DNA of 64,000 nt. Source: an uncultured Candidatus Saccharibacteria bacterium. GTDB lineage: Bacteria > Patescibacteriota > Minisyncoccia > Phycocordibacterales > Phycocordibacteraceae. This document shows positions 8,351 to 62,568 of this stretch, piece after piece. Both the position numbers and the translations under genes were made by a program. The stretch covers positions 64,542 through 128,541 of the forward strand of contig CAZMTN010000001.1 of NCBI GenBank assembly GCA_964569655.1, in the 5' to 3' direction. The notes beneath the pieces are model-generated. The model did no database searches. It was given only the letters and a program-made list of their open reading frames with translations, and was not told the DNA's origin. Numbering within the stretch: position 1 is the stretch's first letter; the number at the start of each line of letters is the position of its first letter.

Positions 8351-9046
8351 ATGGATAAGAAGCGCCCGGTAGCGGTATTCGATATAGACGGCACCATCTT
8401 CCGTTCGTCCCTATTCCTCGAGCTCCTCGAGCGCCTGATCGAGAACGGCGTCTTCCCGAAGGAGACGCGGCACGCGTTCGAGAGCGAACGCATGCGCTGG
8501 CTGGACCGCAAGGGGGACTACCAGACCTACATCGAGAAGGCCGTCGCCGTGTTCAGCAAGCAGCTCAAGGGCGTGAAGTACGAGGATGTCGCCTTCGCTG
8601 CCGGAGAGGTGGTAGAGGAGCGGAAGGACCGCGTGTATCAGTACACGCGCGATCTCGTGAAGAAGCTCCGGAAGAAAGGCTACTTCCTCCTCGCCATCTC
8701 GCACTCCCCGAAATTCATCGCGGACGGCTTCGGCTTCGAGGTAGGGTTCGACAAAATCTATGGCTATTTCTACGAGACCGGCGCGACCGGCCGCTTCACG
8801 GGGGCCGTCGAGGACGAGGATTTGATACGCAACAAGGCCGCGATACTGCAGCGCGCGGTGCGGAAGGAGAATCTCACGCTCGAAGGATCCATCGGCGTCG
8901 GAGATACCGAGAGCGACATCAGCATGCTCGAGCTCGTCGATTCGCCGATCGCGTTCAATCCGAACCAGAAGCTCTACGCGCATGCGAAACGCCGCAAGTG
9001 GAAGATCGTCGTCGAGCGCAAAGATGTCGTCTACGAACTCAGCTAG
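8351..9046 (+). CDS. HAD-superfamily subfamily IB hydrolase (phosphoserine-phosphatase-like)
   Basis: ATG at 8351 (MDKKRPVAVFDIDGTIF) gives the DxDGT motif I. HAD motifs II and III are present (LLAISHSP ... GVGDTESD). Confidence 0.75.
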   Translation: MDKKRPVAVFDIDGTIFRSSLFLELLERLIENGVFPKETRHAFESERMRWLDRKGDYQTYIEKAVAVFSKQLKGVKYEDVAFAAGEVVEERKDRVYQYTRDLVKKLRKKGYFLLAISHSPKFIADGFGFEVGFDKIYGYFYETGATGRFTGAVEDEDLIRNKAAILQRAVRKENLTLEGSIGVGDTESDISMLELVDSPIAFNPNQKLYAHAKRRKWKIVVERKDVVYELS

Positions 9047-9851
9047 GGCGAAGCTCTTCCGGAAGACGGTATGGGGCTTCCATAAGGCCCACGGCCGGCA
9101 CGGGCTCCCGTGGAGGAAGACCCGCGACCCGTACCGGATCCTCGTCTCGGAGGTGATGCTGCAGCAGACGCAAGTGGACCGCGTCATCCCGTACTACCAG
9201 AAGTTCCTGAAGGCATACCCGACGGCAAAGCGCCTTGCGGCTGCATCGCTCGCCGACGTGCTCGCGCTCTGGCAGGGCCTCGGCTATAACCGACGCGCGA
9301 AGATGCTCCACGAAGCCGCGAAGCGGATCGTGGAGGAGCATAAAGGCAGGTTCCCGAGCACCATCGAGGGCATAGAGAGCCTCCCGGGCGTCGGGCCATA
9401 CACGGCTCGGGCCGTCGCGGCATTCGCGTACGATACCGATTCCGTTTTCATAGAGACGAACATACGCACGGCGGTCATCAGGCACTTCTTCCGCAGCAGG
9501 AAGACCGTATCCGATGCGGACATCGAGAAGGCGCTCCTGTCCGCGAAGCCGAAGGGGAGGGCGCGGGAATGGAACGCGGCCCTCATGGATTACGGCTCCT
9601 ATCTGAAGCGCGCGGGTGTGCGCACCAACGCGCGCGTGAAAGGGTACGCCAAGCAGTCCGCGTTCAAGGGTTCGTTCAGGGAGACCCGTGGCCTCTTGCT
9701 CCGTCATCTCCTTGACGGCCCCATGAAGGCGGAAGAGCTCATCTCGAGCATCGCCTCGACAGACAGCGTGCGCGTTAAATCGGCACTCGCTTCCTTAGTG
9801 AAGGACGGGCTGGTGGAGCTCAAGAGCGGCCGATTCAGGCTGCCGCGCTAG
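9024..9851 (+). CDS. HhH-GPD DNA glycosylase, MutY-like N-terminal domain, lacking Fe-S cysteines and the NUDIX domain
   Basis: LPWRKTRDPYRILVSEVMLQQTQV and LPGVGPYTARAVAAFAY motifs. There are no Cys in the C-terminal region. ATG at 9024 overlaps the HAD gene end by 23 nt; the alternative track start is 8982. Confidence 0.7.
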   Translation: MSSTNSARAKLFRKTVWGFHKAHGRHGLPWRKTRDPYRILVSEVMLQQTQVDRVIPYYQKFLKAYPTAKRLAAASLADVLALWQGLGYNRRAKMLHEAAKRIVEEHKGRFPSTIEGIESLPGVGPYTARAVAAFAYDTDSVFIETNIRTAVIRHFFRSRKTVSDADIEKALLSAKPKGRAREWNAALMDYGSYLKRAGVRTNARVKGYAKQSAFKGSFRETRGLLLRHLLDGPMKAEELISSIASTDSVRVKSALASLVKDGLVELKSGRFRLPR

Positions 9852-11584: not shown

Positions 11585-13510
11585 TTACACCCCGATGAGC
11601 ACCGGGATCACCATCGGCGCCTTGTTGGTCCTCGTGAAGAGGAAGCCGGCAAGAGTATCCGAGAGCGCGTTCTTCACGTGATCGAGGTCCACCGGGTTCA
11701 TGCCCTGGGTCGTGTCCTCCACGGTCTTCTTGATGAGGAGACGCGCCTGGTTGAGCATCTCCTGGGATTCCCGGAGGTACACGAAACCGCGGGAGATGAT
11801 GTCCGGAGACTTGCGGAGCTTGCCGGTCTTCAGGTTCACGGTCGCGATGACCACGAACATGCCGTCCTTGGCGAGCATCTGACGGTCGCGGATGACGACC
11901 TCCTGCATGTCGCCGATGGAGAAGCCGTCCACGACGAGCGGGGAAGACGGCACCTTCTCCTTATGTACGAAGAGGCGCTCGCCATCGATGATGTCGATCA
12001 CCGTGCCGTTGTCTGGGATGATGATCTGATCCCGCGGGCGTCCTGCCTGCTCGACCGCCTTCGCGTGGCAGGAGAGCATCGAGTAGTAGCCGTAGCCCGG
12101 CATGAAGAACTTCGCATTGACCTGCTTGTTGATCCACACGAGCTCTCCCGTGTTGCCGTGTCCGGTCGAGTGGACGTCGCTCGAGCGGTAATGGATGAGC
12201 GTCGCACCGTTTCGGTAGAGGTTGTCCTTCAGGCGCTGCACCGAGATCTCGTTGCCCGGGATGACGGAAGACGAGAGGACGACGGTGTCGCGGTCGTTCA
12301 GCTGGATGGACTTGTGCTGCTTGGTCGCGATGCGCATGAGCGCCGCGAACTCCTCGCCCTGCGCGCCGGTCGCGAGGATGACGATCTTATCGGGCGGGTA
12401 GTCGCCGATCTCGGTCGACGGCACGAGCGTGCCCTTGTCGATCTTGAGGAGGCCGGTCTTCTGCGCGATCTCGAGGTTGGTCTTGATCGAGCGGCCCTCG
12501 GTGACGATCTTCTTGCCGAGCTTCTCGGAGATCTCGATGATCTTGATCATGCGCTCGAACTGGGACGCGAAGGTGCCGATGATGAGACGGCCAGGCACCG
12601 TCTTCACGATGTCCTCGAGCGTCTGGTTCACGCGGCGCTCCGGAATGGAGAAGCCGTCCTTCTCGGCGTTGGTCGAGTCCGCGATGAAGATGAGGTTCTT
12701 CTCCGCGCCGAGCGCGCCCCATTTCTTCTTCTCATGCTCTGCCGGGTCGCCGTTCTCATGGTCGAGCTTCAAGTCTCCCGTGAAGACGACATTGCCGTAC
12801 GGGGTCTCGATAGCGATGCCCATGGAATCCGGGATCGAGTGGGTGACCGGGAAGAACTTAACTTTGGTCGAGCCGACCGTGACCGAAGTCCCTACCTCGA
12901 CGACGACGAGCTGGGGAGCCGGCATGTCCGGGTACTCCTCCTGGCGCTTCGCGATCATGATCGCGGTCAGGTTCTGCGTATAGATCGGCGGATTGCCGAA
13001 GCGGTTCATGATGAACGGGATGCCGCCGATGTGGTCCAGGTGGCCGTGCGTGATGAAGACGGCGCGGACGCGGTCCGCGTTCATCTCGAGGTACTTGGTG
13101 TTCGGCAGGATGTAGTCGACGCCCGGGTTCGCGTCCTCGGACACGAACTGGAAGCCCGCATCGACGACGAAGATGTCGTTGCCGACTTCGACGGCGCACA
13201 TGTTGCGGCCCACTTCCTCCACGCCGCCGAGCGGAACGACGCGGACGACGTTCGGCGCGACAGGCTCGGGGATGTAATCCGCGGTCTTCTTGGCGGTCGG
13301 AGGACCTGGACGGCGGAGCATGCGGCGGATATCGCGGCTGCGCCCGCCTGGGCGGCCCCCTCCGCCACCGCCTCCTCGGCGATTGCGGTTACCGCCTCCT
13401 CGGCGCTCTCCTCCGCGATTCTCGCGGGGCGGGCGCCCGCTGTCTGGACGAGGGCCCATGGGGCGGGACGGCTGGTGGGGTGCCGGAGCCGGTGCTGGTG
13501 CTGGTGACAT
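11585..13510 (-). CDS. rnj: ribonuclease J (metallo-beta-lactamase/beta-CASP) with an N-terminal Pro/Ala- and Arg/Gly-rich extension of about 85 aa
   Basis: HxHxDH motif (ITHGHLDHIGG), beta-CASP region and RNase J C-terminal domain. The N-terminus is SPAPAPAPAPH...RGGERRGGGNRNRRGGGGGGGRPGGRSR. An alternative start at rc 13459 (MGPRPDSG) would remove the first 17 residues. Confidence 0.9.
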   Translation of the reverse strand: MSPAPAPAPAPHQPSRPMGPRPDSGRPPRENRGGERRGGGNRNRRGGGGGGGRPGGRSRDIRRMLRRPGPPTAKKTADYIPEPVAPNVVRVVPLGGVEEVGRNMCAVEVGNDIFVVDAGFQFVSEDANPGVDYILPNTKYLEMNADRVRAVFITHGHLDHIGGIPFIMNRFGNPPIYTQNLTAIMIAKRQEEYPDMPAPQLVVVEVGTSVTVGSTKVKFFPVTHSIPDSMGIAIETPYGNVVFTGDLKLDHENGDPAEHEKKKWGALGAEKNLIFIADSTNAEKDGFSIPERRVNQTLEDIVKTVPGRLIIGTFASQFERMIKIIEISEKLGKKIVTEGRSIKTNLEIAQKTGLLKIDKGTLVPSTEIGDYPPDKIVILATGAQGEEFAALMRIATKQHKSIQLNDRDTVVLSSSVIPGNEISVQRLKDNLYRNGATLIHYRSSDVHSTGHGNTGELVWINKQVNAKFFMPGYGYYSMLSCHAKAVEQAGRPRDQIIIPDNGTVIDIIDGERLFVHKEKVPSSPLVVDGFSIGDMQEVVIRDRQMLAKDGMFVVIATVNLKTGKLRKSPDIISRGFVYLRESQEMLNQARLLIKKTVEDTTQGMNPVDLDHVKNALSDTLAGFLFTRTNKAPMVIPVLIGV

Positions 13511-19876: not shown

Positions 19877-20206
19877 GTGATCCCTGATTGGATACATGCT
19901 GATCCCGATTTTCGCGTCGCGTGTGTCCGCGGACTTGTCGATACAGATGGCTGCCTTTACGTGCATAGACACAAGATCGGGGAGAAGGTGTATAAGAACA
20001 TAGGCTTCTGCTTCTCAAGCCGCTCCCCGCGACTCCTGGGCCAGGTATTCGAGATGTTTGAAGAATTTGGACTTTTCCCGCATATTGATAAGCGAGGACA
20101 GAATATCTATCTGTACCGGGCTGAATCAGTGGCACGGTATCTGGACATTTTCGGAACCTCGAATGACCGCATAGGGAAGGTATATAGAAACTGGAGAGGT
20201 GGCTGA
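19877..20206 (+). pseudogene. LAGLIDADG homing-endonuclease-like ORF fragment (single motif), low GC, running into tRNA-Ser
   Basis: GLVDTDGCLYV matches the LAGLIDADG consensus. The downstream helix pattern (IGFCFSSRSPRLLGQVFEMFEEFG) is typical of this fold. It is about 110 aa from a GTG at 19877, and its last 4 codons and stop lie inside tRNA-Ser. Local GC is about 50% against about 62% in the flanks. There is no in-frame ATG after the htpX stop. Confidence 0.45.
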
Positions 20207-20279
20207 GTGGTCGAAAGCACCACCTTGGAAAGGTGGCAGGCGGGAAACTGCCTCGAGGGTTCGAATCCCTCCCTCTCCG
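20193..20279 (+). tRNA. tRNA-Ser (anticodon GGA), type II with long variable arm
   Basis: GGAGAGG acceptor, anticodon loop TTGGAAA, variable arm CAGGCGGGAAACTGCCTC, T-arm GAGGGTTCGAATCCCTC, 3' acceptor CCTCTCC. CCA is not encoded. Confidence 0.9.
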
Positions 20280-20348
20280 CATTAGATTCATTGTACCCAC
20301 AGCCGAGGAATGGTAGGTTCTCGGTAGTCTGAACCTTAGGAGGCAGCC

Positions 20349-27470: not shown

Positions 27471-27810
27471 ACGTATTGCGGACCGGATCATAAGCCGAAT
27501 TCTGTCCTGCCTTGCGGCATGGACGGCTATCTATCTGGGGTGAACATTGCTGATCACCTCGAGCGGCGCTCCGACACTAAGATCGGCACGGCCTTGCACA
27601 GCGGTAAGGATTTAGCCGTTTCACCTCTCCGGTCGTCCGGAGAATTCATCTCAGAGAGATGTCCTCGGCTTTCGCGTCGGACGTCACTGCTCGCACCTCG
27701 CGCCTTGCGGCGGACGGGCGTTACCCGCTACCAGACTCCTGTTTCCAGGCTGTGTTCGGACTTTCCTCTGGGTTTCCCCAGCAGCCGTCACGTCCGGTCC
27801 GGGACGCATG
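27471..27810 (-). ncRNA. rnpB: RNase P RNA (bacterial type A-like)
   Basis: The minus strand carries AGGAAAGUCCGAACACAGCC (CR-I/P4 5' strand, rc of about 27741-27760). It also carries AGAGGUGAAACGG (CR-II, rc near 27620-27632). GCAAGGCC (CR-III) and ACAGAAUUCGGCUUAU (CR-IV/V, rc of 27490-27505) are present in the canonical order. Spacing between CR-I and CR-IV is about 250 nt. The P1 candidate is CGGACCGGA with UCCGGUCCG. The 5' end is uncertain and could reach about 27845. Confidence 0.8.
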
Positions 27811-34121: not shown

Positions 34122-34192
34122 GCGGGATTGGTTTAGTGGTAGGACGCGACCTTCCCAAGGTTGAGGCAGGAGTTCGATTCTCCTATCCCGCA
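34122..34192 (+). tRNA. tRNA-Gly (anticodon CCC)
   Basis: GCGGGAT acceptor, anticodon loop TTCCCAA, T-arm AGGAGTTCGATTCTCCT, 3' acceptor ATCCCGC, discriminator A. CCA is not encoded. It starts 2 nt after the ftsB-like stop. Confidence 0.9.
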
Positions 34193-34224
34193 CTAATGAC
34201 GCATTACTCTATAAAAGAAACTGC

Positions 34225-41008: not shown

Positions 41009-43156
41009 TTACTGCGGCCACTGTGCAGTCATGAGGAGATCGCTGCGCTCTGCGAGCCGCGCTTCCTCAGGAAGGGACTGCCAGATCTCTTCCGTGATGA
41101 ACGGCATGAACGGATGGAGCGCCTTGAGGAGCATGTCGAGGATGTGCGCGAGCGCGGCCTGGCGGGACGCCTTCGCTGCCATGTCGTTCCCGTACAAAAT
41201 AGGCTTCGACTCCTCGAGGATGGTATCCGCGAGGCGATGCCAGGCGTAGTGGTAGAGCTTCTCGCTCGCGAGGTAGAGGCGGTAGCTCTCCATGTCGGCG
41301 GTGACGTCCTTGATCACCTCGAGGCACTCCTGCTTGAGCGTCTCGTCCGCCGCGGTGAGCGGAGCAGATACATCCATGCCCTTGCTGTTCTCGAGGATGA
41401 AGCGGGTGATGTTCCAGAGCTTGTTGCCGAAATGCTTGTATCCCTTGATGCGGTCCTCGGAGAGCTTCAGATCGGTTCCGGGCGTGTTGCCGACCAGAAG
41501 CGCCATGCGGGCCGCGTCCGCGCCGAACTTCGCGGTGATATCGAGGGGATCCAGGTTATTGCCCAAGGACTTGGACATCTTGCGCCCTTGCGCGTCCCGG
41601 ACGAGGCCGTGGAAGTAGACCGTCTTGAAGGGAATGTCCTCGAGCGCGTACTGCGTCATGAGGATCATGCGGGCTACCCAGAAGAAGATGATGTCGTGGC
41701 CGGTCTCCAGAAGATCGGTCGGGTGGTAGTCCTTCAGGTCAGCAGTCTCTTCCGGCCAGCCGAGCGTGGAGAAGGTCCAGAGGCCCGAGGAGAACCACGT
41801 ATCGAGCGTATCCTCATCCTGGCTCCAGCCCTCTCCGCTCGGCGCCTCGCCGACCGCGATCTCATCGCCCTTGTACCAGACTGGAATACGGTGTCCGTAC
41901 CAGATCTGGCGGCTGATGCACCAGTCTCGGAGGTTCCCGATCCAGTGGAAGTACGTCTTATCGAAATAGTCCGGCAAGATGACGATCCTGCCGTCTTTCA
42001 CCGGCTCGAGCATGAGCTCCTTCAGCGACTTGCCGCGTCCCGGGACCTCCTTGCTCACGTCGATGAACCACTGGAGCTTCGGGAGCGGCTCGATGATGCC
42101 GCCCGTGCGCTCCGCGGTGGAGACGCTCTGCTTGATGTCCTCCTCCTTCTCGAGGAGGCCTTCGCTCCGGAGCCACTCGGCAACCAGCTCACGCGCATCG
42201 GTGGTTTTCTTGCCGCTCAGGCGGCCCTCGACGGTCATCTTCGCGTACTCATTGATGACCACCTTATCCTTCGGGAGGCCGTGGCGCTCCGCGATATCCC
42301 AGTCCGCCTGGCTGTGCGCGGGCGTCACGCCGAGCGCGCCTGTGCCGAATTCCGGATCTACCTCCTTGTCCGCGACGATCTTCACGCGGATGGGGACGTC
42401 GCAGAAGACCGCGTCGTATTCCTTGCCGACAAACTCGGTATAGCGCTTGTCATCCGGGTGGACGGCAACGGCGACGTCGCCGACTTTCGTTTCGAGGCGC
42501 GTGGTGGCTACAGGGATAGGGAAGTCCTTCGAATATTTAAAGGTATAGAGCTTGCTGGCGCGCTCTTCGTAGACGATCTCATCGTCCGAGATGGTGGTCT
42601 GGCCCTTCGGGTCCCAGTTCACGATGCGGTTGCCACGGTAGATGAGACCGTCGTCGTACATCTTCTTGAAGACCGTGCGGACGGCCTTCGAGCGCTTCTC
42701 GTCGAGCGTGAACGCCTCGCGGGACCAGTCGAGCGAAGTGCCCATCACCTTCATCTGGCTCACGATGGTGTCGTGGCTCTGAGTAGCGAACTCGCCGATA
42801 CGCTTCAGAAGCTCCTCGCGGCCGAGGTCGTGGCGGCTCTTATCCTCATCCTTCTTGATCTGCTTCTCGACTACCGACTGCGTCGCGATAGCGGCATGAT
42901 CGGTGCCGGGCACCCAGAGCGCGCGGAAGCCCTTCATGCGCTTGTAGCGGATGACGGTGTCCTCGACCGCGAGCATGAGTGCATGGCCCATGTGCAGGCG
43001 TCCGGTGACGTTCGGGGGAGGCAGCACCATGGAGAAGGTGGGGGCGTCCTTAGGCGCCGTATCCGGGTTGAATGCGCCGCTCTCCTCCCACTGGGCGTAG
43101 ATGCGTGCCTCAGTCTCGTGCGGCTGGTAGGGCTTTAGGAATTTCTCAGGCACCAT
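41009..43156 (-). CDS. valS: valine--tRNA ligase (short form lacking the C-terminal coiled-coil)
   Basis: HMGH (PNVTGRLHMGHA) and KMSKS motifs, editing domain, 715 aa. The antisense ORF 41114..43138 is an artefact. Confidence 0.95.
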   Translation of the reverse strand: MVPEKFLKPYQPHETEARIYAQWEESGAFNPDTAPKDAPTFSMVLPPPNVTGRLHMGHALMLAVEDTVIRYKRMKGFRALWVPGTDHAAIATQSVVEKQIKKDEDKSRHDLGREELLKRIGEFATQSHDTIVSQMKVMGTSLDWSREAFTLDEKRSKAVRTVFKKMYDDGLIYRGNRIVNWDPKGQTTISDDEIVYEERASKLYTFKYSKDFPIPVATTRLETKVGDVAVAVHPDDKRYTEFVGKEYDAVFCDVPIRVKIVADKEVDPEFGTGALGVTPAHSQADWDIAERHGLPKDKVVINEYAKMTVEGRLSGKKTTDARELVAEWLRSEGLLEKEEDIKQSVSTAERTGGIIEPLPKLQWFIDVSKEVPGRGKSLKELMLEPVKDGRIVILPDYFDKTYFHWIGNLRDWCISRQIWYGHRIPVWYKGDEIAVGEAPSGEGWSQDEDTLDTWFSSGLWTFSTLGWPEETADLKDYHPTDLLETGHDIIFFWVARMILMTQYALEDIPFKTVYFHGLVRDAQGRKMSKSLGNNLDPLDITAKFGADAARMALLVGNTPGTDLKLSEDRIKGYKHFGNKLWNITRFILENSKGMDVSAPLTAADETLKQECLEVIKDVTADMESYRLYLASEKLYHYAWHRLADTILEESKPILYGNDMAAKASRQAALAHILDMLLKALHPFMPFITEEIWQSLPEEARLAERSDLLMTAQWPQ

Positions 43157-43177
43157 ATCTCCGGACTATACCAGATT

Positions 43178-44341
43178 CTAAGCCGTTTTCCCGAGGGAGA
43201 GATTGCCGTTCGCCTTGAGGGCGCCTGGGTCTGCGAAATCCTGCCTCAAGGCCCGATAGAAGCCAGCAAGCGCGATCATGATGGCGTTATCAGTAGTGAG
43301 GTCAGCGGACGGGATGCGCAGCGATACGTCGGTGAGCTGCTCCTCGAATACGCGACGGATATGGATGTTAGCGGAAACGCCGCCGCCAATGACTACGGTC
43401 CTCGCTCCCGTCTCCTCGACCGCACGCTCGGTCTTCTTGAGCAGCACTTCTGCTACCGCGTTCTCGAACTCATGCGCGACATGCTGCTTGTTCGCGTCCG
43501 GATTATTCTTCAGAAGGTAAAGCACGGCAGTCTTGAGGCCGGCGAAGGAGAAGTCGCAGGAATTCGAATCCAGCATCGGACGGGGAAGCGCGATCGGGTT
43601 GATTCCGCCGCACATGCGCGCATCTTCCGCGAGCTTCGAGATCTCCGGCCCGCCCGGGTACGGGAGCCCAAGCATGCGGGCGACCTTATCGAACGCTTCG
43701 CCGACAGCATCGTCTCGCGTCTGTCCGATCATCTCGTATGAAAGCCACTCCTTCATGAGCACGAGCTCCGTGTGCCCGCCGGAGATGAGGAGGGCGAGCA
43801 CAGGCATCTCGATATCCCTGATAGCGAGGCCTGTGTCAGTCTTCTTCGCGAGCGCGGAGAGTATGTGCCCCTCCATATGATTCACGGCGACAAGCGGCTT
43901 GTTCCAGAGTATCGAGAGCGCACGCGCGAAATTGATGCCCACCCAGAGCGCCGGCTCCAGTCCTGGACCTGCGGTTACCGCGATGGCGTCTATGTCCGGC
44001 ACCTCGCACTCCTCGACGAACTCGAAGAACGCAGCTTCGAGCCCCGGCTCCCGCTCAAGGAGCCGGATTATCTCCGCACGCGTTTCATCCGCGATGATCT
44101 GTTTGTCTTCATGCAAAAGCTCCGCTTCCTCGAGGGCGGCTTCAAGCAGCGGCACGAGGTTCTTCGCATGCTCGCGCTTGGCGAGCGCCGGGAAGACGCC
44201 GCCGTATTCCTTATGGATATCTATCTGGGAGAGGAGTGCGTTCCCGAGGACGCGGAACTCCGCAGCCTGCTCGTCGCCGGTCCCCTCAAGGATGGCGATC
44301 GCGGTCTCGTCGCAGGAGGTCTCTATCGCGAGGACTTTCAT
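43178..44341 (-). CDS. tsaD: tRNA N6-adenosine threonylcarbamoyltransferase TsaD (Kae1/YgjD family)
   Basis: MKVLAIETSCDETAIAIL start at rc 44339-44341, HxxH-type metal site (AVNHMEGHI) and the Kae1 fold. The ATG overlaps the upstream stop (ATGA). Confidence 0.9.
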   Translation of the reverse strand: MKVLAIETSCDETAIAILEGTGDEQAAEFRVLGNALLSQIDIHKEYGGVFPALAKREHAKNLVPLLEAALEEAELLHEDKQIIADETRAEIIRLLEREPGLEAAFFEFVEECEVPDIDAIAVTAGPGLEPALWVGINFARALSILWNKPLVAVNHMEGHILSALAKKTDTGLAIRDIEMPVLALLISGGHTELVLMKEWLSYEMIGQTRDDAVGEAFDKVARMLGLPYPGGPEISKLAEDARMCGGINPIALPRPMLDSNSCDFSFAGLKTAVLYLLKNNPDANKQHVAHEFENAVAEVLLKKTERAVEETGARTVVIGGGVSANIHIRRVFEEQLTDVSLRIPSADLTTDNAIMIALAGFYRALRQDFADPGALKANGNLSLGKTA

Positions 44342-45195
44342 CAGTCGTCGACAGGTTTGCCCTTGATGAACTTCCACGGCATCGGCTTATCGAAGCCGAG
44401 GCGGAAGCCGGCGCTGTTCGGGTGCCCGCTGCTGCCGTACTTGGCGGCGATGTCGGCGACGTTCACCGTCCCGTCCCCGCGGATGGAGACGCCGAGCCCT
44501 TCCGGGTGCGCGGACACGACGAGCGCGAACGGGCCCTTCTTCTTTGCGAGAATATTCCCGATGAGGGACTTGAGCGGCTTCAGCGGGTGCGCGGTAGCGA
44601 AGTAGACCTCGTGACCCTCGAATTCGACGAGCTCCGCGTTCTCGACCGCGATCTCAGCGAGGAGCTCGAAGTACTCCTTGTACGCGTTCGCGACCCCGAG
44701 GAGCTCTTTGCGGCTCGAATCGCCGGCGAGCGCCTTCGCGACGCTATCCCAGAACGCGAACGAGAGCGGATGCGCGGTGAGGTACGTGAGTACCGCGCGG
44801 GTATCTTGCAGTTTGAAACGGAAGAGATCATCGTCCTCGACGTAGCGGATCAGCTCCGGGATCTCGGTATCCGGATGGAAATACGCCCACGCGATGGACG
44901 CGCCCGAGCGGTTCGGGTCGTAGACATGGTTCGGGTAGGAGGTGGCGACGCTCTCCACGCCCTCGTGGTGGTCGAGCACGGTGAAGGACGCCGCCTGGGC
45001 GGCGATAGCGTCCATCTGATCCTTCGGGAAGCAGAAGTCGATCATATAGACATCCTTTCCAGAGACGTCTCCCTCGAACGGCTTGCCGTGCTTCTGCGGC
45101 AGGTATTCCGCCTCGTCCCCGAACTTCTTCCAGGCGCTGTATGCGCCCCCGAATCCGTCTGGGCAGTCTCCGTGGTAGAGGATCGCGGTCTTCAT
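44341..45195 (-). CDS. DHH/DHHA1 phosphoesterase (NrnA-like nanoRNase/pAp phosphatase)
   Basis: ATG at rc 45193-45195 (MKTAILYHGDCPDGFGG). DHH motif VLDHHEG and DHHA1 GGHPNSAG. The long 5' extension of the track ORF (to 45735) is R-rich artefact. Confidence 0.8.
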   Translation of the reverse strand: MKTAILYHGDCPDGFGGAYSAWKKFGDEAEYLPQKHGKPFEGDVSGKDVYMIDFCFPKDQMDAIAAQAASFTVLDHHEGVESVATSYPNHVYDPNRSGASIAWAYFHPDTEIPELIRYVEDDDLFRFKLQDTRAVLTYLTAHPLSFAFWDSVAKALAGDSSRKELLGVANAYKEYFELLAEIAVENAELVEFEGHEVYFATAHPLKPLKSLIGNILAKKKGPFALVVSAHPEGLGVSIRGDGTVNVADIAAKYGSSGHPNSAGFRLGFDKPMPWKFIKGKPVDD

Positions 45196-45203
45196 ATCGA
45201 TAA

Positions 45204-46067
45204 CTATCGCACGAACCGTACGTAAATGCCGGCGGGTATGACGCGTTCGGAGCCACTCTCCTTGATAAGGAGCTCTCCCGATTCTCCCTCCACCTTCCCG
45301 AAGACGCTCTCCACCGCCTGCGCGAAGGAGCGGGACGCGTAGCCTGCCGCATACCCGTTCACGAGGAAGAATGCGCCCGGCTTCTCGGCAAGGAGCTCCT
45401 TCAGTACCGGAAGGAGTTCCGGCAGATGCTCCTCGATGTGCCACACCTCTCCTTTGGCTCCGCGGCCGAACGCAGGCGGATCGAGGATGATGCCGTCGTA
45501 CTTCACGCCGCGGCGCACTTCGCGTTTCGCGAAGGCGAGCGCGTCGTCGAGGATCCAGCGGATGCTGTCTCCCGGGATTCCGGAGAGTGCAGCGTTCTCC
45601 TTCGCCCACGTGATCGACTGCTTCGACGCGTCCACGTGCGTTACGAATGCGCCTGCTTTCGCGGCCGCTACGCTCGCGATGCCGGTGTACCCGAAGAGGT
45701 TCAGTACCTGCGGCTTCTCGAGCTTCTGGATGCATCCCGTCGCCCAGGCCCAGTTAGGCGCCTGCTCGGGGAAGATGCCGGTATGTTTGAAGGCCGTGAG
45801 CTTCGCATGCGCGCGGATATCGCCGTAGGGGACTTCCCAAGACTCAGGAACCGCTTTGCGCTTATCCCACGATCCGCTCTTATCGCGGAACATGAAGGCA
45901 GCATGCGCGGCTTCCCAGGCTTCCGGATCCCGCTTCAGCCAGACCGCCTGGGTCTCAGGACGAGCGACGATCACCTCGCCGAAACGCTCGAGCTTCATGT
46001 TGTCTCCGGAATCGAGGAGCTCGTACCCGGCAGAGGTCTCAGTGATGAGGTGCTTGTCGTAGATCAT
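45204..46067 (-). CDS. class I SAM-dependent rRNA methyltransferase (RlmI/RlmK-like, PF10672-type)
   Basis: SAM-binding VLNLFGYTGIASVAAAKAGA...HVDAS and DPPAFG motifs. Confidence 0.7.
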   Translation of the reverse strand: MIYDKHLITETSAGYELLDSGDNMKLERFGEVIVARPETQAVWLKRDPEAWEAAHAAFMFRDKSGSWDKRKAVPESWEVPYGDIRAHAKLTAFKHTGIFPEQAPNWAWATGCIQKLEKPQVLNLFGYTGIASVAAAKAGAFVTHVDASKQSITWAKENAALSGIPGDSIRWILDDALAFAKREVRRGVKYDGIILDPPAFGRGAKGEVWHIEEHLPELLPVLKELLAEKPGAFFLVNGYAAGYASRSFAQAVESVFGKVEGESGELLIKESGSERVIPAGIYVRFVR

Positions 46068-46825
46068 AGGGACTCAGGATGGCGCGCGCTCCACGCGAAG
46101 AAGACGATGCCCGCTGATACGGCGGCATTCAGGGACTCGGTGCGCGCATGCATCGGGATGGAGAGCGTGATATCGCAGGCCTCGAGCGTCTTCTCTCGGA
46201 TGCCTTTGCCCTCGTTGCCGATCACGATCGCGGTCGGCGCATCGAATTGCTCGTCGGAGAGCTTCACCGAGCCCTCCATGTCGAGGCCATAGATCCAGAA
46301 GCCCTTCTTCTTCAGCACTTCGAGCGTGTTATTCACGTTCCCGATGGAGACGAGCGGGATGCGGAAGGTCATGCCGGCTGAGGTCTTGATGACCGTGCCC
46401 GTAATGCCTGCTTGGTTGTGTTCCGGGATGAGGACGCCTGCGAAGCCGAACGCCGCCGCCGAGCGGATGATGGCGCCTACGTTATGCGGGTCCTGCACTT
46501 CGCCGAGTACCGCGACGGCCGGCTGCTTAGACATATCGAGCGTGTCCAAGAAGTCGTGCAGGGAAAGGAGGAGCTTGCTCGGGTCGATGGTGGCGATGAC
46601 GCCCTGGTGGCTCGCGTCGCGTCCGACGGCATCGGTAGCTGCGCCCTTCGAGAGCTCCGCTACGGGGATATCGTGCTCCTTGAGGAGCGCGTGGAGCTCG
46701 GGATCGGTGATGTCCGGCGCGAGGAACGCCTTCTTCACGACGTCCGGACGGCTCAAAAGCGCCTCGGCGAGGGCATGCTTTCCGTAGAGATACACCTTCT
46801 CGCTCCGACCCTCTTTCGATTTCAT
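46064..46825 (-). CDS. SpoU/TrmH-family RNA 2'-O-methyltransferase (RlmB-like)
   Basis: SPOUT motifs (LGEVQDPHNVGAIIRSAAAFG, IVIGNEGKGIR, SLNAAVSAGIVFF). The true ATG (MKSKEGRS...) at rc 46823-46825 shares its A with the CCA of tRNA-Val. The track's 5' extension is the tRNA itself. Confidence 0.8.
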   Translation of the reverse strand: MKSKEGRSEKVYLYGKHALAEALLSRPDVVKKAFLAPDITDPELHALLKEHDIPVAELSKGAATDAVGRDASHQGVIATIDPSKLLLSLHDFLDTLDMSKQPAVAVLGEVQDPHNVGAIIRSAAAFGFAGVLIPEHNQAGITGTVIKTSAGMTFRIPLVSIGNVNNTLEVLKKKGFWIYGLDMEGSVKLSDEQFDAPTAIVIGNEGKGIREKTLEACDITLSIPMHARTESLNAAVSAGIVFFAWSARHPESL

Positions 46826-46900
46826 GGTGCGCGGTGAGGGACTTGAACCCCCGACATCTTCAACGTCAATGAAGCGCTCTACCAACTGAGCTAACCGCGC
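46825..46900 (-). tRNA. tRNA-Val (anticodon GAC), CCA encoded
   Basis: Minus strand reads GCGCGGTTAGCTCAGTTGGTAGAGCGCTTCATTGACGTTGAAGATGTCGGGGGTTCAAGTCCCTCACCGCGCACCA, which gives a canonical cloverleaf. Confidence 0.9.
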
Positions 46901-46946
46901 ATTGCTGTCGCAGAATACCGCGATTCACGTTACTATTCAACCCACC

Positions 46947-47567
46947 ATGGAAATCGTGAAAGTCGAGGAACTAGGCATAGACGCGGCTGCTGCCCGGGCC
47001 GCCGACGTGATATCTAAGGGCGGCATCGTAGCCTACCCGACCGATACCCTGTATGGCCTCGGCGTGAACGCGCTCGATGCAGACGCCCTCAGGCGTCTCA
47101 AGGAGCTCAAAGGCCGGGAAGAAGGGAAGCCCATCTCCATCATGGTCCCGAGTGCCGAAGCTATCTCCTGGCACGCGGAGCTCACGCCAGGAGCCCGCGT
47201 GCTCGCGGAGAAATTCCTTCCGGGGCCGCTCACGCTCGTCGTGCCGGCGAAGGATCATCTCCCGAAGGAGCTCGCGCCGGACGGCACCGTCGGCATCCGC
47301 GTGCCAGATGACGCCTTCACTCGAGCGTTCTCCGCCATGTCCGAGTACCCGATCACCTCGACCTCCGCGAACCTGGCCGGCATGGAGACGCCGCATACGG
47401 TCAGAGACCTCCTCGCGCACTTCGGCCCGAAGATGGGCGATATCGACCTCTATATAGATGACGGGCCGCGCAGCGGAGGCGTCGGCTCGACCGTCGTTTC
47501 CTGTCTTTCTACGTTGCCGGTGCTGCTGCGCGAGGGCGCTATCTCGAAGAAGGACTTAGGGCTATAG
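46947..47567 (+). CDS. tsaC: L-threonylcarbamoyladenylate synthase (TsaC/YrdC/Sua5 family)
   Basis: YrdC domain (GGIVAYPTDTLYGLGVNALDADALRRL ... STSANLAG). ATG at 46947 inside track ORF 46902..47567. Confidence 0.85.
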   Translation: MEIVKVEELGIDAAAARAADVISKGGIVAYPTDTLYGLGVNALDADALRRLKELKGREEGKPISIMVPSAEAISWHAELTPGARVLAEKFLPGPLTLVVPAKDHLPKELAPDGTVGIRVPDDAFTRAFSAMSEYPITSTSANLAGMETPHTVRDLLAHFGPKMGDIDLYIDDGPRSGGVGSTVVSCLSTLPVLLREGAISKKDLGL

Positions 47568-47573
47568 GATGGT

Positions 47574-47819
47574 ATGCTATCGACCATGAAAACCAACCTT
47601 ATCGCCGCCATCTGCCTGGCTTTCGGAGTGCTGTTCTCTTTCTCCATCGGTACCGCGCTCCTGTTCGGGTATATGTACTTCGTTGAAGGCGATCCTATGA
47701 CAGGCATTATCGCGCTCATTGCTCTCGGCATCATAGCTATCGGACTGATCATCATGAGCTTCAGCAAGAAAGCTCGGGAGGTTGTGAACGTCGCGATCGA
47801 GCACGTCGGCATCGGTTAG
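47574..47819 (+). CDS. hypothetical small membrane protein (81 aa, 2 TM)
   Basis: Two hydrophobic helices. No known domain. Confidence 0.35.
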   Translation: MLSTMKTNLIAAICLAFGVLFSFSIGTALLFGYMYFVEGDPMTGIIALIALGIIAIGLIIMSFSKKAREVVNVAIEHVGIG

Positions 47820-48112
47820 TACATCCGGTCGCGGATAGTAGCAAGCGCTGCAGTGACCGCAGAGTCAGTGATCCTCGTAAAGCGGGGAAGGCGTCTGCCG
47901 TCAACTTCAACCTCTTCGAAGAACATCTCGAGCGGGCGCGCCTGGTACTTCGCGGGCGGCATCCATTCGCTCTCGTAGAGTGGGCGGTAGAGGACCATCA
48001 GGGACTTATCCTCGGTGTTCCGCGCGATGCCGACCACCTCGTAGGTGTAATTGTGCGGCTTGCCGCTCGGGTCGTGCTTGTAGTGCGTATAGAAACCGGG
48101 CTCAGGGTGCAT
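47816..48112 (-). CDS. DUF1653-family protein
   Basis: YTHYKHDPSGKPHNYTYEVVGIARNTEDKSLMVLYRPLY matches the DUF1653 signature. 98 aa. Confidence 0.6.
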   Translation of the reverse strand: MHPEPGFYTHYKHDPSGKPHNYTYEVVGIARNTEDKSLMVLYRPLYESEWMPPAKYQARPLEMFFEEVEVDGRRLPRFTRITDSAVTAALATIRDRMY

Positions 48113-48124
48113 AAGAATATTCTA

Positions 48125-48742
48125 TCAAGCGTAATTCTCGCCATCCACGGACCGCCAGAGGTAGAGCGACGCCACCGTCCGATGCGGCGCCCACTGCTTT
48201 CCGATCTTCTCCATCTGCTTGACCGTAGGCAGCTTCTTGAACCCGTAGATCCTCTGAAACCCTTTCTGGATGGCGAGGTCTCCGGTAGGGAGTACGTCGG
48301 GGCGCAACAGCGTGAACATGAGGAACATGTCCGCTGACCAGCGGCCGATGCCTTTCACTACGATGAGATGCGCGCGTATCTCCTCGTCTGTCATATTCGG
48401 GAACTTCCGCGGATTGATGGTGCCGTCGAGGAACCGCTCGGCGAGGTCCCGCACGTATACCACCTTAGAGTTCGAGAGCCCAGCAGTGCGCAGCTGCTCC
48501 GGACTGAGCTTGACCAGCTCATTGGGAGAGAGCCTGCCGCCTGGAAAAAGCGCCTTGAAGCGCTTCATGATCGCGGCAGCGGCTTTGCCGGACACCTGCT
48601 GGTAGATGATCGCCTGGGCCAGGGCAGCGAACGCCTGCTTCGGATACGCGTACGGCTTAAGCGTGAGCTTCTTCATCGCTTCGCGCATCCTCAGATCCTT
48701 GCGAAGATGCCGATGAGCTTCTTCCAGCGCGTAATCCTTCAT
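48125..48742 (-). CDS. DNA-3-methyladenine glycosylase II-like HhH-GPD protein (AlkA/Mag-like)
   Basis: HhH-GPD motifs (LVKLSPEQLRTAGLSNSKVVYVRDLA ... VKGIGRWSADMFLMFTL ... D). ATG (MKDYALEE...) at rc 48740-48742 shares its A with the CCA of tRNA-Ser(CGA). The track's 5' extension is the tRNA. Confidence 0.7.
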   Translation of the reverse strand: MKDYALEEAHRHLRKDLRMREAMKKLTLKPYAYPKQAFAALAQAIIYQQVSGKAAAAIMKRFKALFPGGRLSPNELVKLSPEQLRTAGLSNSKVVYVRDLAERFLDGTINPRKFPNMTDEEIRAHLIVVKGIGRWSADMFLMFTLLRPDVLPTGDLAIQKGFQRIYGFKKLPTVKQMEKIGKQWAPHRTVASLYLWRSVDGENYA

Positions 48743-48831
48743 GGCGGAGAGGGAGGGATTCGAACCCTCGAGGAACTTTCGCCCCTGCCGGTTTTCGAAA
48801 CCGGTGCATTCGACCACTCTGCCACCTCTCC
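48742..48831 (-). tRNA. tRNA-Ser (anticodon CGA), type II, CCA encoded
   Basis: Minus strand reads GGAGAGGTGGCAGAGTGGTCGAATGCACCGGTTTCGAAAACCGGCAGGGGCGAAAGTTCCTCGAGGGTTCGAATCCCTCCCTCTCCGCCA. The acceptor and T-arm are identical to tRNA-Ser(GGA) at 20193. Confidence 0.9.
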
Positions 48832-49153
48832 AGTTCCCGCTATCCTAGCACCCGTCTCATATAAATGCGATACGAGCCCCGGAAGGGGCTCGTAGGGGCT
48901 TGCTTACGCAGGCGCCTGTTCGGTCGGAGCAGCTTCGGTCTCCGGAGCCGCTGGCTCTGCAGCAGGGTCCATCGGCACTGCTGCCGGGTTGGTGTTCTCT
49001 TCCATGGTTGATGTGGGAGGCATGCGGGTTCATGAGAATCCGCACGACGCTCTGTATAAGCTGGCAAAGGTTCGACCTTGTAGCTAAGTATACCAGAAGA
49101 TGCCGGATTCCTAGATGGCGCTTTCGAAGAAAGATGCTATGGTTTCTCCACAC

Positions 49154-49225
49154 GGCCTCATCGTCTAACGGTTAGGACAGCGCCCTTTCACGGCGTAAAT
49201 CGGGGTTCGATTCCCCGTGGGGTCA
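49154..49225 (+). tRNA. tRNA-Glu (anticodon TTC)
   Basis: GGCCTCATCGTCTAACGGTTAGGACAGCGCCCTTTCACGGCGTAAATCGGGGTTCGATTCCCCGTGGGGTCA. The acceptor has two G-U pairs. CCA is not encoded. Confidence 0.85.
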
Positions 49226-49280
49226 CATACACAGCACCGCAAGCATTCATTGATGCTTGAAAGGTATACTTTCGCTAAGC

Positions 49281-49790
49281 ATGAGGATCTATATAACCGG
49301 AGTCTCTGGCACAGGGAAGACAACAACTATAGAAAAGTTGAGGGAGAGGGGCATCCATACTATCGACCTGGATGGCGTGCCTGGCCTGTGCCGCTGGGTG
49401 CACAAGGTGACGAAGGAAACCCACCTCTGGCACCCAGGTATCGGGCAGGAATTCTTCGACAGCCATGACTACATCTGCGACAAACAGAGGCTCATCGAGC
49501 TCATGGGCAGCGGCAACGCTGTAGTTGCAGGCCTGGCGGACAATCAGTCGGGATTTTTCGACTTGTTCGATAAGCTCTTCCTTTTCCATTGCGACGAGGA
49601 GATCTTCCTGCAGCGCGTGCGCGACCGGACGAACCATGACTTTGGAAAGGATGACTCTGAGCAGGAAATGATCCGGGGGTGGTACAAGGAATTCGAACAG
49701 GAGATGCTGGATGCGGGAGCCATCTCTGTAGATGCATCCCAGCCCACGGACGTGATCGTTGCGCAGCTGCTGAGCGAGCTTGCTTCCTAA
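49281..49790 (+). CDS. P-loop NTPase (AAA_33/AAA_18-like putative kinase)
   Basis: Walker A MRIYITGVSGTGKTTT and Walker B-like LFLFHCDEE. ATG at 49281, with TATACT 10 nt upstream. The track start at 49257 is a TTG. Confidence 0.6.
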   Translation: MRIYITGVSGTGKTTTIEKLRERGIHTIDLDGVPGLCRWVHKVTKETHLWHPGIGQEFFDSHDYICDKQRLIELMGSGNAVVAGLADNQSGFFDLFDKLFLFHCDEEIFLQRVRDRTNHDFGKDDSEQEMIRGWYKEFEQEMLDAGAISVDASQPTDVIVAQLLSELAS

Positions 49791-61422: not shown

Positions 61423-62568
61423 TTACTTCTTCTTCGCGCCTCCCGCGAACGAGAGCGTCATGCGCTGATCCTTCGGTTCGAAGAGAGTGATCTTGAACGG
61501 ATAGCTCTTGCCGAGCTCGAGCGCATCGCGCAGGGCCTGCGGCGTCTCGAATTCCGAGATGTGCACGAGGCCGGCGACGCCTTCCTCCACCGACGCGAGC
61601 GCGCCATGCTTGTTGTACTTGATGACAACGCCCTCCACGTCCTGGCCCTTCTGGTAGCGGTCTCCCGCGGTCTTCCAAGGGTTCTCCTTGAGCGCCTTGA
61701 TGGAGAGGGAGATCTTGCCCTCCTTGATCTCGATAACCTTCACCTTCACGCGCTCGCCGACCTTGAAGAGTGAGCGAGGGTCCTCCACGAGACCCCAATC
61801 GAGCTCGCTGATGTGGACGAGGCCTTCGAGGCCCTGTTCGAGCTTCACGAAGACGCCGAAGTCGACGACGCCCGTGACCTCGCCCTCAACGGTATCGCCG
61901 ACGACATACTTGTCGATGAGGTTAGCCTTCTCGGTATCCTCTTCGCCGGTGCGCTCGGAGAAGATGAGCTTACCTTCGCGGGCGTCCGCGGTGATGATGC
62001 GGACCGGGACCGATACGCCGATGAGCTTCTTGAGCTCGCCGAGGATCTTCTCCTTGTCTCCCTCAGGCACGCGCGGGTAGTGCTCCTTCGCGAGCTGGGA
62101 AGCCGGGAGGAAGCCCTGGATGCCCTGCCACGAGAGCATGAGGCCACCCTTGTTGGCTTCCTCGATGGTGAGGTTGTAAATAGTCTGCGCGGCGATAGCC
62201 TGCTCAGCCTCGCCCCAGATAGCCGCCTGCCGAGCTTCCTTGAGGGAGAGCTCGATGTATCCTTCGCGGCCGGCGACATCCACCACCTTCGCGGTGATGG
62301 TGTCTCCGATGTTCGCCTTGCGGAGCACGTCTGCGGCGTTCAGGTACTCGCGGCCGTAGATGAGGCCGGTGCCGAACGGCGGGAGGTCGATATAGAGGCG
62401 ACCGCGCCCGAGCGCGATGATCTTGCCTTCGATAAGGTCGCCGGGACTCGGCGGGGTAGGGATCGAGTCCGCGAGCGACGCCATGGCGTTGTTCGCGTCG
62501 ATCACCAATGCTGGCGCCGGCGAAGCCGGGCGCTTTGCTACTTCTTCCATATAAATTGCGGTGCGCAT
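61423..62568 (-). CDS. rpsA: 30S ribosomal protein S1 (short form, about 4 S1 domains)
   Basis: Repeated S1 OB-fold motifs (GDLIEGKIIALGRGRLYIDL, GDTITAKVVDV, GDTVEGEVTGVVDFGVFVKL, GQDVEGVVIKYNKHGALASV). The N-terminal start is uncertain, with candidate Met codons at M1, M7 and M29. Confidence 0.8.
   Translation of the reverse strand: MRTAIYMEEVAKRPASPAPALVIDANNAMASLADSIPTPPSPGDLIEGKIIALGRGRLYIDLPPFGTGLIYGREYLNAADVLRKANIGDTITAKVVDVAGREGYIELSLKEARQAAIWGEAEQAIAAQTIYNLTIEEANKGGLMLSWQGIQGFLPASQLAKEHYPRVPEGDKEKILGELKKLIGVSVPVRIITADAREGKLIFSERTGEEDTEKANLIDKYVVGDTVEGEVTGVVDFGVFVKLEQGLEGLVHISELDWGLVEDPRSLFKVGERVKVKVIEIKEGKISLSIKALKENPWKTAGDRYQKGQDVEGVVIKYNKHGALASVEEGVAGLVHISEFETPQALRDALELGKSYPFKITLFEPKDQRMTLSFAGGAKKK

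Follow-up and report, generated by a model that had tools for sequence, protein, structure and literature searches.

Two tRNA genes that run into start codons in a patescibacterial genome: a possible bacterial analogue of mitochondrial tRNA punctuation

Introduction

How is a protein gene expressed when its start codon shares a nucleotide with the 3' end of a tRNA gene? The question is raised by a stretch of 64,000 nucleotides (nt) from an uncultured bacterium of the candidate phyla radiation (CPR) (contig CAZMTN010000001.1, positions 64,542 to 128,541; hereafter the window), in which the CCA end of tRNA-Val(GAC) overlaps the ATG of rlmB, a gene for an RNA methyltransferase. The original prediction, made from the window alone, was that the overlap leaves no room for a promoter, that the mRNA must therefore be co-transcribed with the tRNA and owe its 5' end to tRNA 3' processing, and that the same geometry recurs further upstream. 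Here we analyze the junctions, their relatives and the surrounding genes. The comparative evidence leads us to favor, with a probability of roughly 60%, the full mechanism, in which co-transcription and an endonucleolytic cut at the tRNA 3' end would produce an mRNA with a leader of only 0-3 nt.

Results

The two tRNA/ATG junctions

ARAGORN places tRNA-Val(GAC) at 46825-46900 and tRNA-Ser(CGA) at 48742-48831, both on the minus strand, and both score well above the gathering score of 29 for Rfam RF00005 (69.4 and 60.7 bits, respectively). Read on the minus strand, tRNA-Val ends in ...GCGCACCA, the A76 of which doubles as the A of the rlmB ATG; the gene tail is ...CACCGCGC-A-CCA and passes directly into TGAAATCG, so that the junction reads ...CACCGCGCACCA/TGAAATCG. 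The tRNA-Ser gene has the tail ...CTCTCC-G-CCA, followed by TGAAGGAT (junction ...CTCTCCGCCA/TGAAGGAT). The features that meet at the two junctions are the following.

46825-46900, minus strand: tRNA-Val(GAC), with A73 at 46828, C74 at 46827, C75 at 46826 and A76 at 46825, the A of the rlmB ATG (ARAGORN, Rfam, fold)
46064-46825, minus strand: rlmB, 23S rRNA Gm2251 2'-O-methyltransferase family, 253 amino acids (aa), ATG at 46825-46823 (Pfam, TIGR00186)
48742-48831, minus strand: tRNA-Ser(CGA), with G73 at 48745, C74 and C75 at 48744-48743 and A76 at 48742, the A of the glycosylase ATG (ARAGORN, Rfam)
48125-48742, minus strand: HhH-GPD DNA-3-methyladenine glycosylase II-like gene, 205 aa, ATG at 48742-48740 (Pfam HhH-GPD, homologue register)

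The predicted overlap of the tRNA-Val CCA with the methyltransferase ATG is thus confirmed by ARAGORN, by Rfam and by reading of the sequence. In both cases the start codon lies 2 nt after the discriminator, so that the tRNA 3' end adjoins the downstream start codon as it does in mitochondria, and two of the seven tRNA genes in the window are fused to an ATG. Both tRNAs have the marks of canonical elongator tRNAs, namely a score above gathering, a 7-bp acceptor stem and a sensible anticodon, and the acceptor, D and T arms of tRNA-Val form when the tRNA is folded with its flanks. The first ~14 nt of the mRNA are predicted to be unpaired; folding z-scores were unremarkable, and a special structure at the junction was not evident.

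A fused tRNA could also be a non-working "t-element" kept for mRNA processing or stability, with the functional copy elsewhere in the genome. Elements of this kind, tRNA-like and used for processing only, are known from plant mitochondria (PMC1920247) and from Haloferax (PMC4946936). We consider this very unlikely here: tRNA-Val has the highest tRNA score in the window and strong sequence conservation, the acceptor stem is a perfect 7 bp in all loci, and ARAGORN finds no second tRNA-Val(GAC) in the 64 kb. In CPR genomes, moreover, tRNAs are usually present in single copy.

By its profile matches the 253-aa product is a member of the RlmB/SpoU class IV RNA 2'-O-methyltransferase family, with Pfam SpoU_sub_bind and SpoU_methylase domains (E-values 4.9e-10 and 2.3e-40) and 204.2 bits against TIGR00186 (equivalog cutoff 160.15). 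It had been labeled SpoU/TrmH; the SpoU family assignment stands, but TIGR00186 identifies the enzyme as RlmB (23S Gm2251) and not as TrmH. For the glycosylase only superfamily membership can be read from the profiles, since it matches PF00730 (64.5 bits, cutoff 26.2) and scores below the cutoffs of the AlkA and Ogg equivalog models.

The fused ATGs as start codons

We scanned an RlmB alignment against a collection of species-representative genomes and a metagenome collection, located tRNAs with ARAGORN and placed the discriminator by acceptor-stem pairing; the resulting loci carry L numbers. The 120 RlmB homologues that matched best come, where named, from Kaiserbacteria, Paceibacterota or Patescibacteria in every case; judged by these and by related contigs, the window belongs to a Candidatus Kaiserbacteria genome. 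The homologues begin with MRPKR, MKSK or MKP (most with MRPKR or MKSK), continue with a basic extension of variable length and then reach (K)[VI]YIYGKHAL. The N-terminus of the window protein, MKSKEGRSEK, aligns with these N-termini.

We considered and rejected one alternative start for rlmB:

46793-46806, minus strand: GTG at 46795-46793 with GGAG at 46806-46803, 7 nt upstream (rejected from relatives and homologues)

Were this the true start, the CCATG would be a coincidence within a 30-nt leader. The GGAG-N7-GTG motif is present in the window, Shine-Dalgarno (SD) sequences do occur at some window genes, and the Pfam and TIGR domain models begin only at residues 11-12. However, the three closest relatives (L162, L164, and L161) have GTA in place of this codon and an altered GGAG; many homologues, indeed most, have Ile in place of the window Val before YIYGKHAL; the MRPKR and MKSK N-termini are conserved; and about 24 loci have an in-frame ATG or GTG exactly 1-3 nt past the discriminator. 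These observations leave the GTG start a negligible chance, and the possibility that the true start lies further downstream, which would have spoken against the predicted fusion, is not upheld.

For the glycosylase we rejected a start at Met19, which has AAGGA upstream. Glycosylase homologues begin with MKKxxLDAAHKHLRKD, in register with the window sequence MKDYALEEAHRHLRKD; the 18 residues before Met19 are conserved in this register and are therefore coding.

Both open reading frames (ORFs) are open into the tRNA genes, giving 273-aa (TTG start) and 230-aa versions. Because the 1-nt difference between CATG and CCATG in relatives shifts the ORF frame relative to the tRNA, translation from within the tRNA is not conserved. 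An SD-led internal start, that is a conserved codon with an SD sequence 5-10 nt upstream, was not found for rlmB or the glycosylase among the relatives and homologues. The fused ATGs are thus almost certainly the real start codons, and for the methyltransferase the homologue N-termini and the GTA codon in three relatives bear out the predicted start. The case has a bearing on CPR annotation, as gene callers extend such ORFs into the tRNA (the 273-aa TTG ORF) or may truncate them.

Leaderless gene architecture of the window

The window has 61% G+C. From ORFs whose G+C by codon position is coding-like we took 63 first ATGs and searched upstream of them for the -10 pattern TANNNT. It starts at -14 to -12 in 21 of the 63, and at -12 alone it is found in 20.6% of first ATGs versus 0.24% of all other ATGs (binomial p = 4e-23). 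A -10 box in this position before the ATG is the signature of leaderless transcription in Deinococcus and Actinobacteria (PMC4007540). With about one third of the window genes carrying such a box at -12 to -14, leaderless mRNAs can be taken as the norm here. Clear SD sequences precede a minority of genes (20349, 57908, 15940, and 18299). ATGs with the leaderless signature include 2060, 4240, 18373, 33766, 38275, 38663, 40977 (minus), 48112 (minus), 50343 and 59649 (minus), and TGn often precedes the box.

Two unfused tRNA genes of the window are followed by promoters of this type: a TATAAT-N8-ATG unit begins ~20 nt after tRNA-Arg and a TATAGT-N6-ATG unit ~20 nt after tRNA-Phe. The gene downstream of the glycosylase serves as a comparison case within the window, being by its sequence a promoter-defined leaderless gene:

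47816-48127, minus strand: DUF1653 gene, ATG at 48112, extended -10 TGaTAGAAT at 48127-48119, 6 nt before the ATG (Pfam, sequence)

The TG of this extended -10 (48119-48127) is supplied by the TGA stop codon of the glycosylase, so tightly are coding and promoter signals packed. The anti-SD motif has been reported as undetected in about half of Parcubacteria (PMC9297842). A published description of leaderless architecture in Patescibacteria was not found in open-access full text, which does not prove that there is none.

Promoters and transcription units

Upstream of the two tRNA genes we identified the following signals.

46912-46940, minus strand: promoter of the tRNA-Val unit, -35 TTGAAT at 46940-46935, 17-nt spacer, -10 TATTCT at 46917-46912 (sequence, relatives)
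48842-48850, minus strand: extended -10 TGcTAGGAT serving the tRNA-Ser unit, 10 nt before the 5' end of the tRNA (sequence)
48871-48894, minus strand: hairpin TACGAGCCCC-TTCC-GGGGCTCGTA, ending the upstream unit just before the tRNA-Ser promoter (sequence)

The tRNA-Val promoter stands 11 nt before the 5' end of the mature tRNA, and both of its hexamers are invariant in L162, L164, and L161. The motif of the tRNA-Ser promoter, cGTGcTAGGAT, recurs in other Paceibacteria, where leaderless rlmB ATGs follow it after 7-10 nt. The hairpin at 48871-48894 was not called by a terminator scan, its T tract being weak. Proximity of the -10 box to the tRNA is not peculiar to tRNA-Val: tRNA -10 boxes end only 8-11 nt before the mature 5' end in the window (46901-46917 and 48832-48850) and in L003, L005, L010, and L083, so that primary transcripts would offer RNase P 5' leaders of only ~1-5 nt.

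Between tRNA and ORF, the TANNNT, consensus promoter and terminator scans revealed neither a promoter nor a terminator. No TANNNT starts at -16 to -10 of ATG 46825 or of ATG 48742, which places the fused genes outside the promoter-defined leaderless class. The consensus promoter scan of 45900-49300 found none either; as it was strict enough to miss also the conserved tRNA-Val promoter (8/12 positions matched), the result rests mainly on the TANNNT scan. Together with the conserved promoter upstream of the tRNA, the two empty scans agree with the original prediction that no promoter separates tRNA-Val from the methyltransferase ORF.

Leaderless promoters in this genome need little space and only a -10 box, and one might suppose that rlmB has an independent promoter within the tRNA gene, with transcription starting at the A of the ATG. 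But the 16 nt before each fused ATG (GTCCCTCACCGCGCACC and AATCCCTCCCTCTCCGCC) lack TANNNT and consist of constrained tRNA T-arm and acceptor sequence, and relatives differ by 1-2 nt in how far this stretch lies from the ATG. Such a promoter is highly improbable. The simplest reading, and in view of these sequences a very probable one, is a single transcript that would start a few nucleotides before tRNA-Val and run into the rlmB operon.

Comparison of rlmB loci in relatives

Conservation of the CCATG fusion in relatives had been proposed as a check on the prediction, and it was found. Relatives with 61% identity or more provided 33 loci in which tRNA-Val(GAC) immediately precedes rlmB, always with an acceptor stem that pairs 7/7. 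In about 24 loci, including seven GTDB species representatives, rlmB starts 1-3 nt after the discriminator, and CCATG is invariant in L162 (95% RlmB identity), L164 (92%), and L161 (81%). The loci are listed here by the distance from discriminator to start codon.

1 nt, A-C-ATG, no CCA encoded: L003, L004, L010, L087, L089, L092
2 nt, A-CC-ATG: L001, L006, L008, L017, L083/L146, L088, L093, L095, L098, L161, L162, L164, window
2 nt, A-CC-GTG: L100
3 nt, CAA-ATG: L091
3 nt, CCA-ATG: L096
3 nt, CTT-GTG: L101
3 nt, CCT-GTG: L103
4-21 nt: no loci
22 nt, A-rich spacer without a clear -10 box: L011
27-37 nt, spacer with extended -10 promoter: L097, L094, L081, L086, L151, L007
58 nt, spacer with extended -10 promoter: L002
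83 nt, spacer with extended -10 promoter: L104

Apart from L011, all loci with a long spacer have an extended -10 promoter (TTGATTTCGTGCTATAAT or similar; TGnTATAnT) that ends 7-8 nt before the ATG. The same promoter-N7-8-ATG layout is found where no tRNA lies upstream (L005, L009, L082, L084, and L090) and at rlmB in nearly all more distant Paceibacteria. In a neighbor-joining tree of RlmB, which is rough, the states with a distance of 1, 2 or 3 nt and the promoter state are interspersed, and the fused state spans the deepest splits, being present in the window subclade, a GTG-start subclade and the large MRPKR clade; this points to long persistence and repeated switching of the junction state.

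Relatives with a spacer and their own promoter, an arrangement that had been named as evidence against the fusion, do exist (~9 loci). They do not refute the idea, because the spacer promoters also yield leaderless mRNA and the states interconvert on the tree. As far as can be read from its upstream sequences, the rlmB mRNA of this clade is in every case set up to begin on or beside the AUG, by way of either a promoter or the 3' end of tRNA-Val. Given the identical junction in three close relatives and starts 1-3 nt from the discriminator in ~24 loci, the junction is more than a chance juxtaposition.

At its 5' end rlmB shows nucleotide conservation across the first codons, third positions included (ATG CGA CCA AAA CG, encoding MRPKR). 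This conservation is seen in fused and own-promoter loci alike (L001-L017 and L081-L103; window 46825-46800), and it may reflect a sequence requirement of leaderless initiation or a functional basic N-terminal tail.

Encoded CCA and position 74

CCA is encoded in 4/7 tRNA genes of the window and absent from 3/7; the window tRNAs examined include those at 20193-20280, 34122-34193, and 49154-49226. Among distinct non-Val tRNA genes of the CPR loci, the full CCA is present in 9/51 and absent in 42/51, while C74 is found in 48/51 and the commonest triplet at 74-76 is CAA (the non-CPR control set, n=2, was too small for comparison). Position 74 is C in each of the 31 tRNA-Val genes, where a CCA is nearly always part of a fusion to ATG; the gene for this tRNA in relatives commonly shows A73-C-ATG and no CCA.

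These counts indicate that the CCA of the window is probably C74-C75 plus the A of the start codon, rather than a functional encoded 3' end. Nearly every tRNA gene of the clade has a C or CC following its discriminator; a start codon placed there accounts for the apparent CCA/ATG overlap, and the paradox of one nucleotide serving two RNAs disappears. Since CCA is mostly not encoded, a CCA-adding enzyme must exist in these organisms. The near-constant C74 may reflect contact with RNase P (L15 loop) or a 3'-processing site after C74; why C74 is nearly always present and CCA so rarely encoded is a question on CPR tRNA 3'-end maturation.

Further tRNA-to-start junctions

The geometry had also been predicted at 48740-48831, and it is indeed there, at tRNA-Ser and the glycosylase, but as a separate and recent event. 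The tRNA-Ser(CGA)-glycosylase fusion was found in no related locus; tRNA-Ser(CGA) precedes other sequence there, and in L161, the nearest long contig, the glycosylase follows a 262-aa ORF after a 22-nt spacer. By this comparison the fusion is lineage-specific and recent, and because relatives lack it the CC-ATG geometry arose a second time in the lineage of the window.

Looser arrangements were seen elsewhere. In L037 (2407-2500; 56% identity) the rlmB ATG lies 5 nt past tRNA-Tyr-CCA, at a distance of 8 nt from the discriminator. In L004 (1633-1706, minus) an ORF of 80 codons or more starts 6 nt after the discriminator of tRNA-Glu, and in L010 (2117-2204, minus) another such ORF starts at this distance from the discriminator of tRNA-Ser(CGA).

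Neighboring genes

Downstream of rlmB the same strand carries the remaining genes of the operon:

45204-46067, minus strand: S-adenosylmethionine (SAM)-dependent RNA methyltransferase, RlmI/RlmK-like (Pfam Methyltrans_SAM, NCBIfam, coordinates)
44341-45195, minus strand: hypothetical protein (sequence)
43178-44341, minus strand: tsaD, its start overlapping the preceding stop (TGATG) (Pfam TsaD, sequence)

The ATG of the RlmI/RlmK-like gene overlaps the rlmB stop (ATGA), which places it in the rlmB operon. The order tRNA-Val(GAC), rlmB, RlmI/K-like methyltransferase, hypothetical gene, tsaD, valS forms part of a cluster for RNA modification and decoding around tRNA-Val (41009-47567), from which tsaC/Sua5 is transcribed divergently. 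The valine-tRNA ligase gene valS (NF004349, 896 bits) has its own TGGTATAGT promoter; its product has only 715 aa, covers profile positions 2-697 of 860 and lacks the usual C-terminal part.

Two features of the window concern RNA processing:

27475-27801, minus strand: RNase P RNA class A (Rfam, 123.6 bits)
11585-13510, minus strand: RNase J (TIGR00649, 490 bits)

Elsewhere the window encodes a short (381 aa) ribosomal protein S1-like product (61423-62568, minus), which scores below all rpsA equivalog cutoffs, and another HhH-GPD glycosylase that is Nth/MutY-like and has an HHH motif (8982-9851, plus).

Discussion

A proposed mechanism for tRNA-defined mRNA 5' ends

We propose that tRNA-Val(GAC) and the rlmB operon (rlmB, the SAM methyltransferase gene, the hypothetical gene and tsaD) would form one unit transcribed from the promoter upstream of the tRNA, and that tRNA-Ser(CGA) and the glycosylase gene would form a second. 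RNase P would trim the very short 5' leader, and an endonuclease would cut at the tRNA 3' end, most likely through RNase Z-type cleavage following either the discriminator or C74. The tRNA thus freed would be completed by a CCA-adding enzyme. The cut would also free a 5'-monophosphate mRNA with its AUG 0-3 nt from the 5' end, which could be translated by the leaderless route already used for ~1/3 of the genes. An mRNA 5' end set by tRNA processing fits the leaderless architecture of the window and the alternation of fusion and promoter in relatives, and is supported by both.

Several points weigh against this mechanism. A search of 37 ORFs of the 64-kb window, all long ones included, with Pfam (10 of them also with NCBIfam) brought up neither an RNase Z nor a CCA-adding enzyme. 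CCA at positions 74-76 inhibits RNase Z in Bacillus subtilis and in eukaryotes; if valid here, this inhibition would argue against cleavage at CCATG, and the CATG variants would be processed differently. The free interchange of CATG and CCATG variants on the tree weakly suggests an enzyme indifferent to CCA. Exonucleolytic 3' maturation up to the encoded CCA would destroy the mRNA. A 5'-monophosphate mRNA would be a substrate for RNase J, a 5'-3' exonuclease, and such exposure could leave the output of RlmB far below that of the tRNA. Finally, most fused loci descend from one ancestral junction and are hence not independent events.

The main rival to tRNA-defined 5' ends is tolerated compaction. 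The fusion would then be a by-product of genome streamlining: the transcript would end up either as tRNA, if exonucleases trimmed its 3' end back as far as the CCA with loss of the mRNA start, or as a poorly translated tRNA-mRNA chimera read by internal, SD-independent initiation, and precise punctuation would be unnecessary. The full CCA encoded in the window variants, the lack of an RNase Z gene among those found in the window and the far smaller amounts in which RlmB is needed compared with tRNA speak for it. CPR genomes are also reported to retain PNPase, RNase J and RNase III (PMC12641178). On the other side, many relatives have A73-C-ATG and hence no CCA to trim to, with the geometry unchanged. 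Selection for an AUG at the 5' terminus is indicated by the bimodal spacing and by the fact that the fusion gives way only to a promoter that starts transcription at the ATG. With a 7-bp acceptor stem 2-3 nt away and no SD sequence, the AUG is moreover a poor site for internal initiation, by what is known of 30S binding. We regard compaction as unlikely.

A more far-reaching version of the tRNA-processing mechanism can be offered only tentatively. In Kaiserbacteria and other Paceibacteria, tRNA punctuation might be a regular, selectable route to leaderless mRNAs that depends on an unusual rule of tRNA 3' processing, with an endonuclease that cuts after C74 or ignores the CCA anti-determinant. 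Such an enzyme would fit the presence of C74 in 48/51 and of CCA in only 9/51 non-Val tRNA genes. With a cut after C74, C/AUG junctions would give perfectly leaderless mRNAs, and the CC and CCA variants would give leaders of 1-2 nt. The promoter of the tRNA would then double as the promoter of RNA-modification operons.

If tRNA processing does set the 5' end, leaderless translation in CPR bacteria would accept processed 5'-monophosphate ends. The loci also provide a natural experiment, in which sister species have the 5' end of one gene defined by a tRNA or by a promoter, and with which the needs of leaderless mRNAs can be probed.

Comparison with known systems

In open-access full text we found no description of tRNA-defined leaderless mRNAs in bacteria, only mitochondrial, archaeal and actinobacterial analogues. 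As far as that literature goes, confirmation by RNA mapping would make this the first known case of bacterial tRNA excision defining a translatable mRNA 5' end.

The E. coli thrU-tyrU-glyT-thrT-tufB operon is a mixed tRNA-mRNA operon with a spacer of ~100 nt, including an SD sequence, before tufB. It resembles the proposed units in that a protein gene is co-transcribed downstream of a tRNA from the tRNA promoter. It differs in that the normal SD-bearing spacer is kept, and tRNA processing sets no translatable 5' end.

The t-elements of plant mitochondria and haloarchaea share with our proposal the use of tRNA-processing enzymes to produce mRNA termini, but they are degenerate tRNA mimics, whereas the tRNAs here are canonical and presumably essential. 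In E. coli, the MazF endonuclease makes leaderless mRNAs (Vesper et al., 2011, cited in PMC3848588), and there too an endonucleolytic cut near the AUG turns a longer transcript leaderless. MazF, however, is stress-induced, toxin-mediated, ACA-specific and leaves a 5'-OH, while the cut proposed here would be constitutive and tied to tRNA maturation. With the leaderless mRNAs of Actinobacteria and Deinococcus (D. deserti, PMC4007540) the window shares the TAnnnT box ~6-7 nt before the start, present at 21/63 window genes, and would share the mode of translation. Unlike promoter-defined leaderless genes, the fused genes have a tRNA in place of the -10 box, and their 5' end would be a processed monophosphate rather than a triphosphate.

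The closest known system is the tRNA punctuation of mitochondria, said to have been described by Ojala, Montoya and Attardi in 1981, of which the junction reported here is, by analogy, a bacterial (CPR) counterpart. In mitochondria, polycistronic transcripts lose their tRNAs to cleavage by RNase P and RNase Z/ELAC2, a process that yields leaderless mRNAs, and tRNA excision that defines mRNA 5' ends is considered a hallmark of animal mitochondria. The two systems have in common a tRNA 3' end 0-3 nt from a start codon and a CCA that is mostly not encoded and must be added; as proposed here, they would also share a 5' end set by tRNA excision and the leaderless translation of an mRNA without an SD sequence. 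The differences are that the host is a bacterium with an ordinary promoter for each operon, that only some tRNAs form such junctions (2/7 in the window), that the tRNA stands first in the transcript instead of between two coding regions, and that the same gene may use a promoter with its start at the ATG instead.

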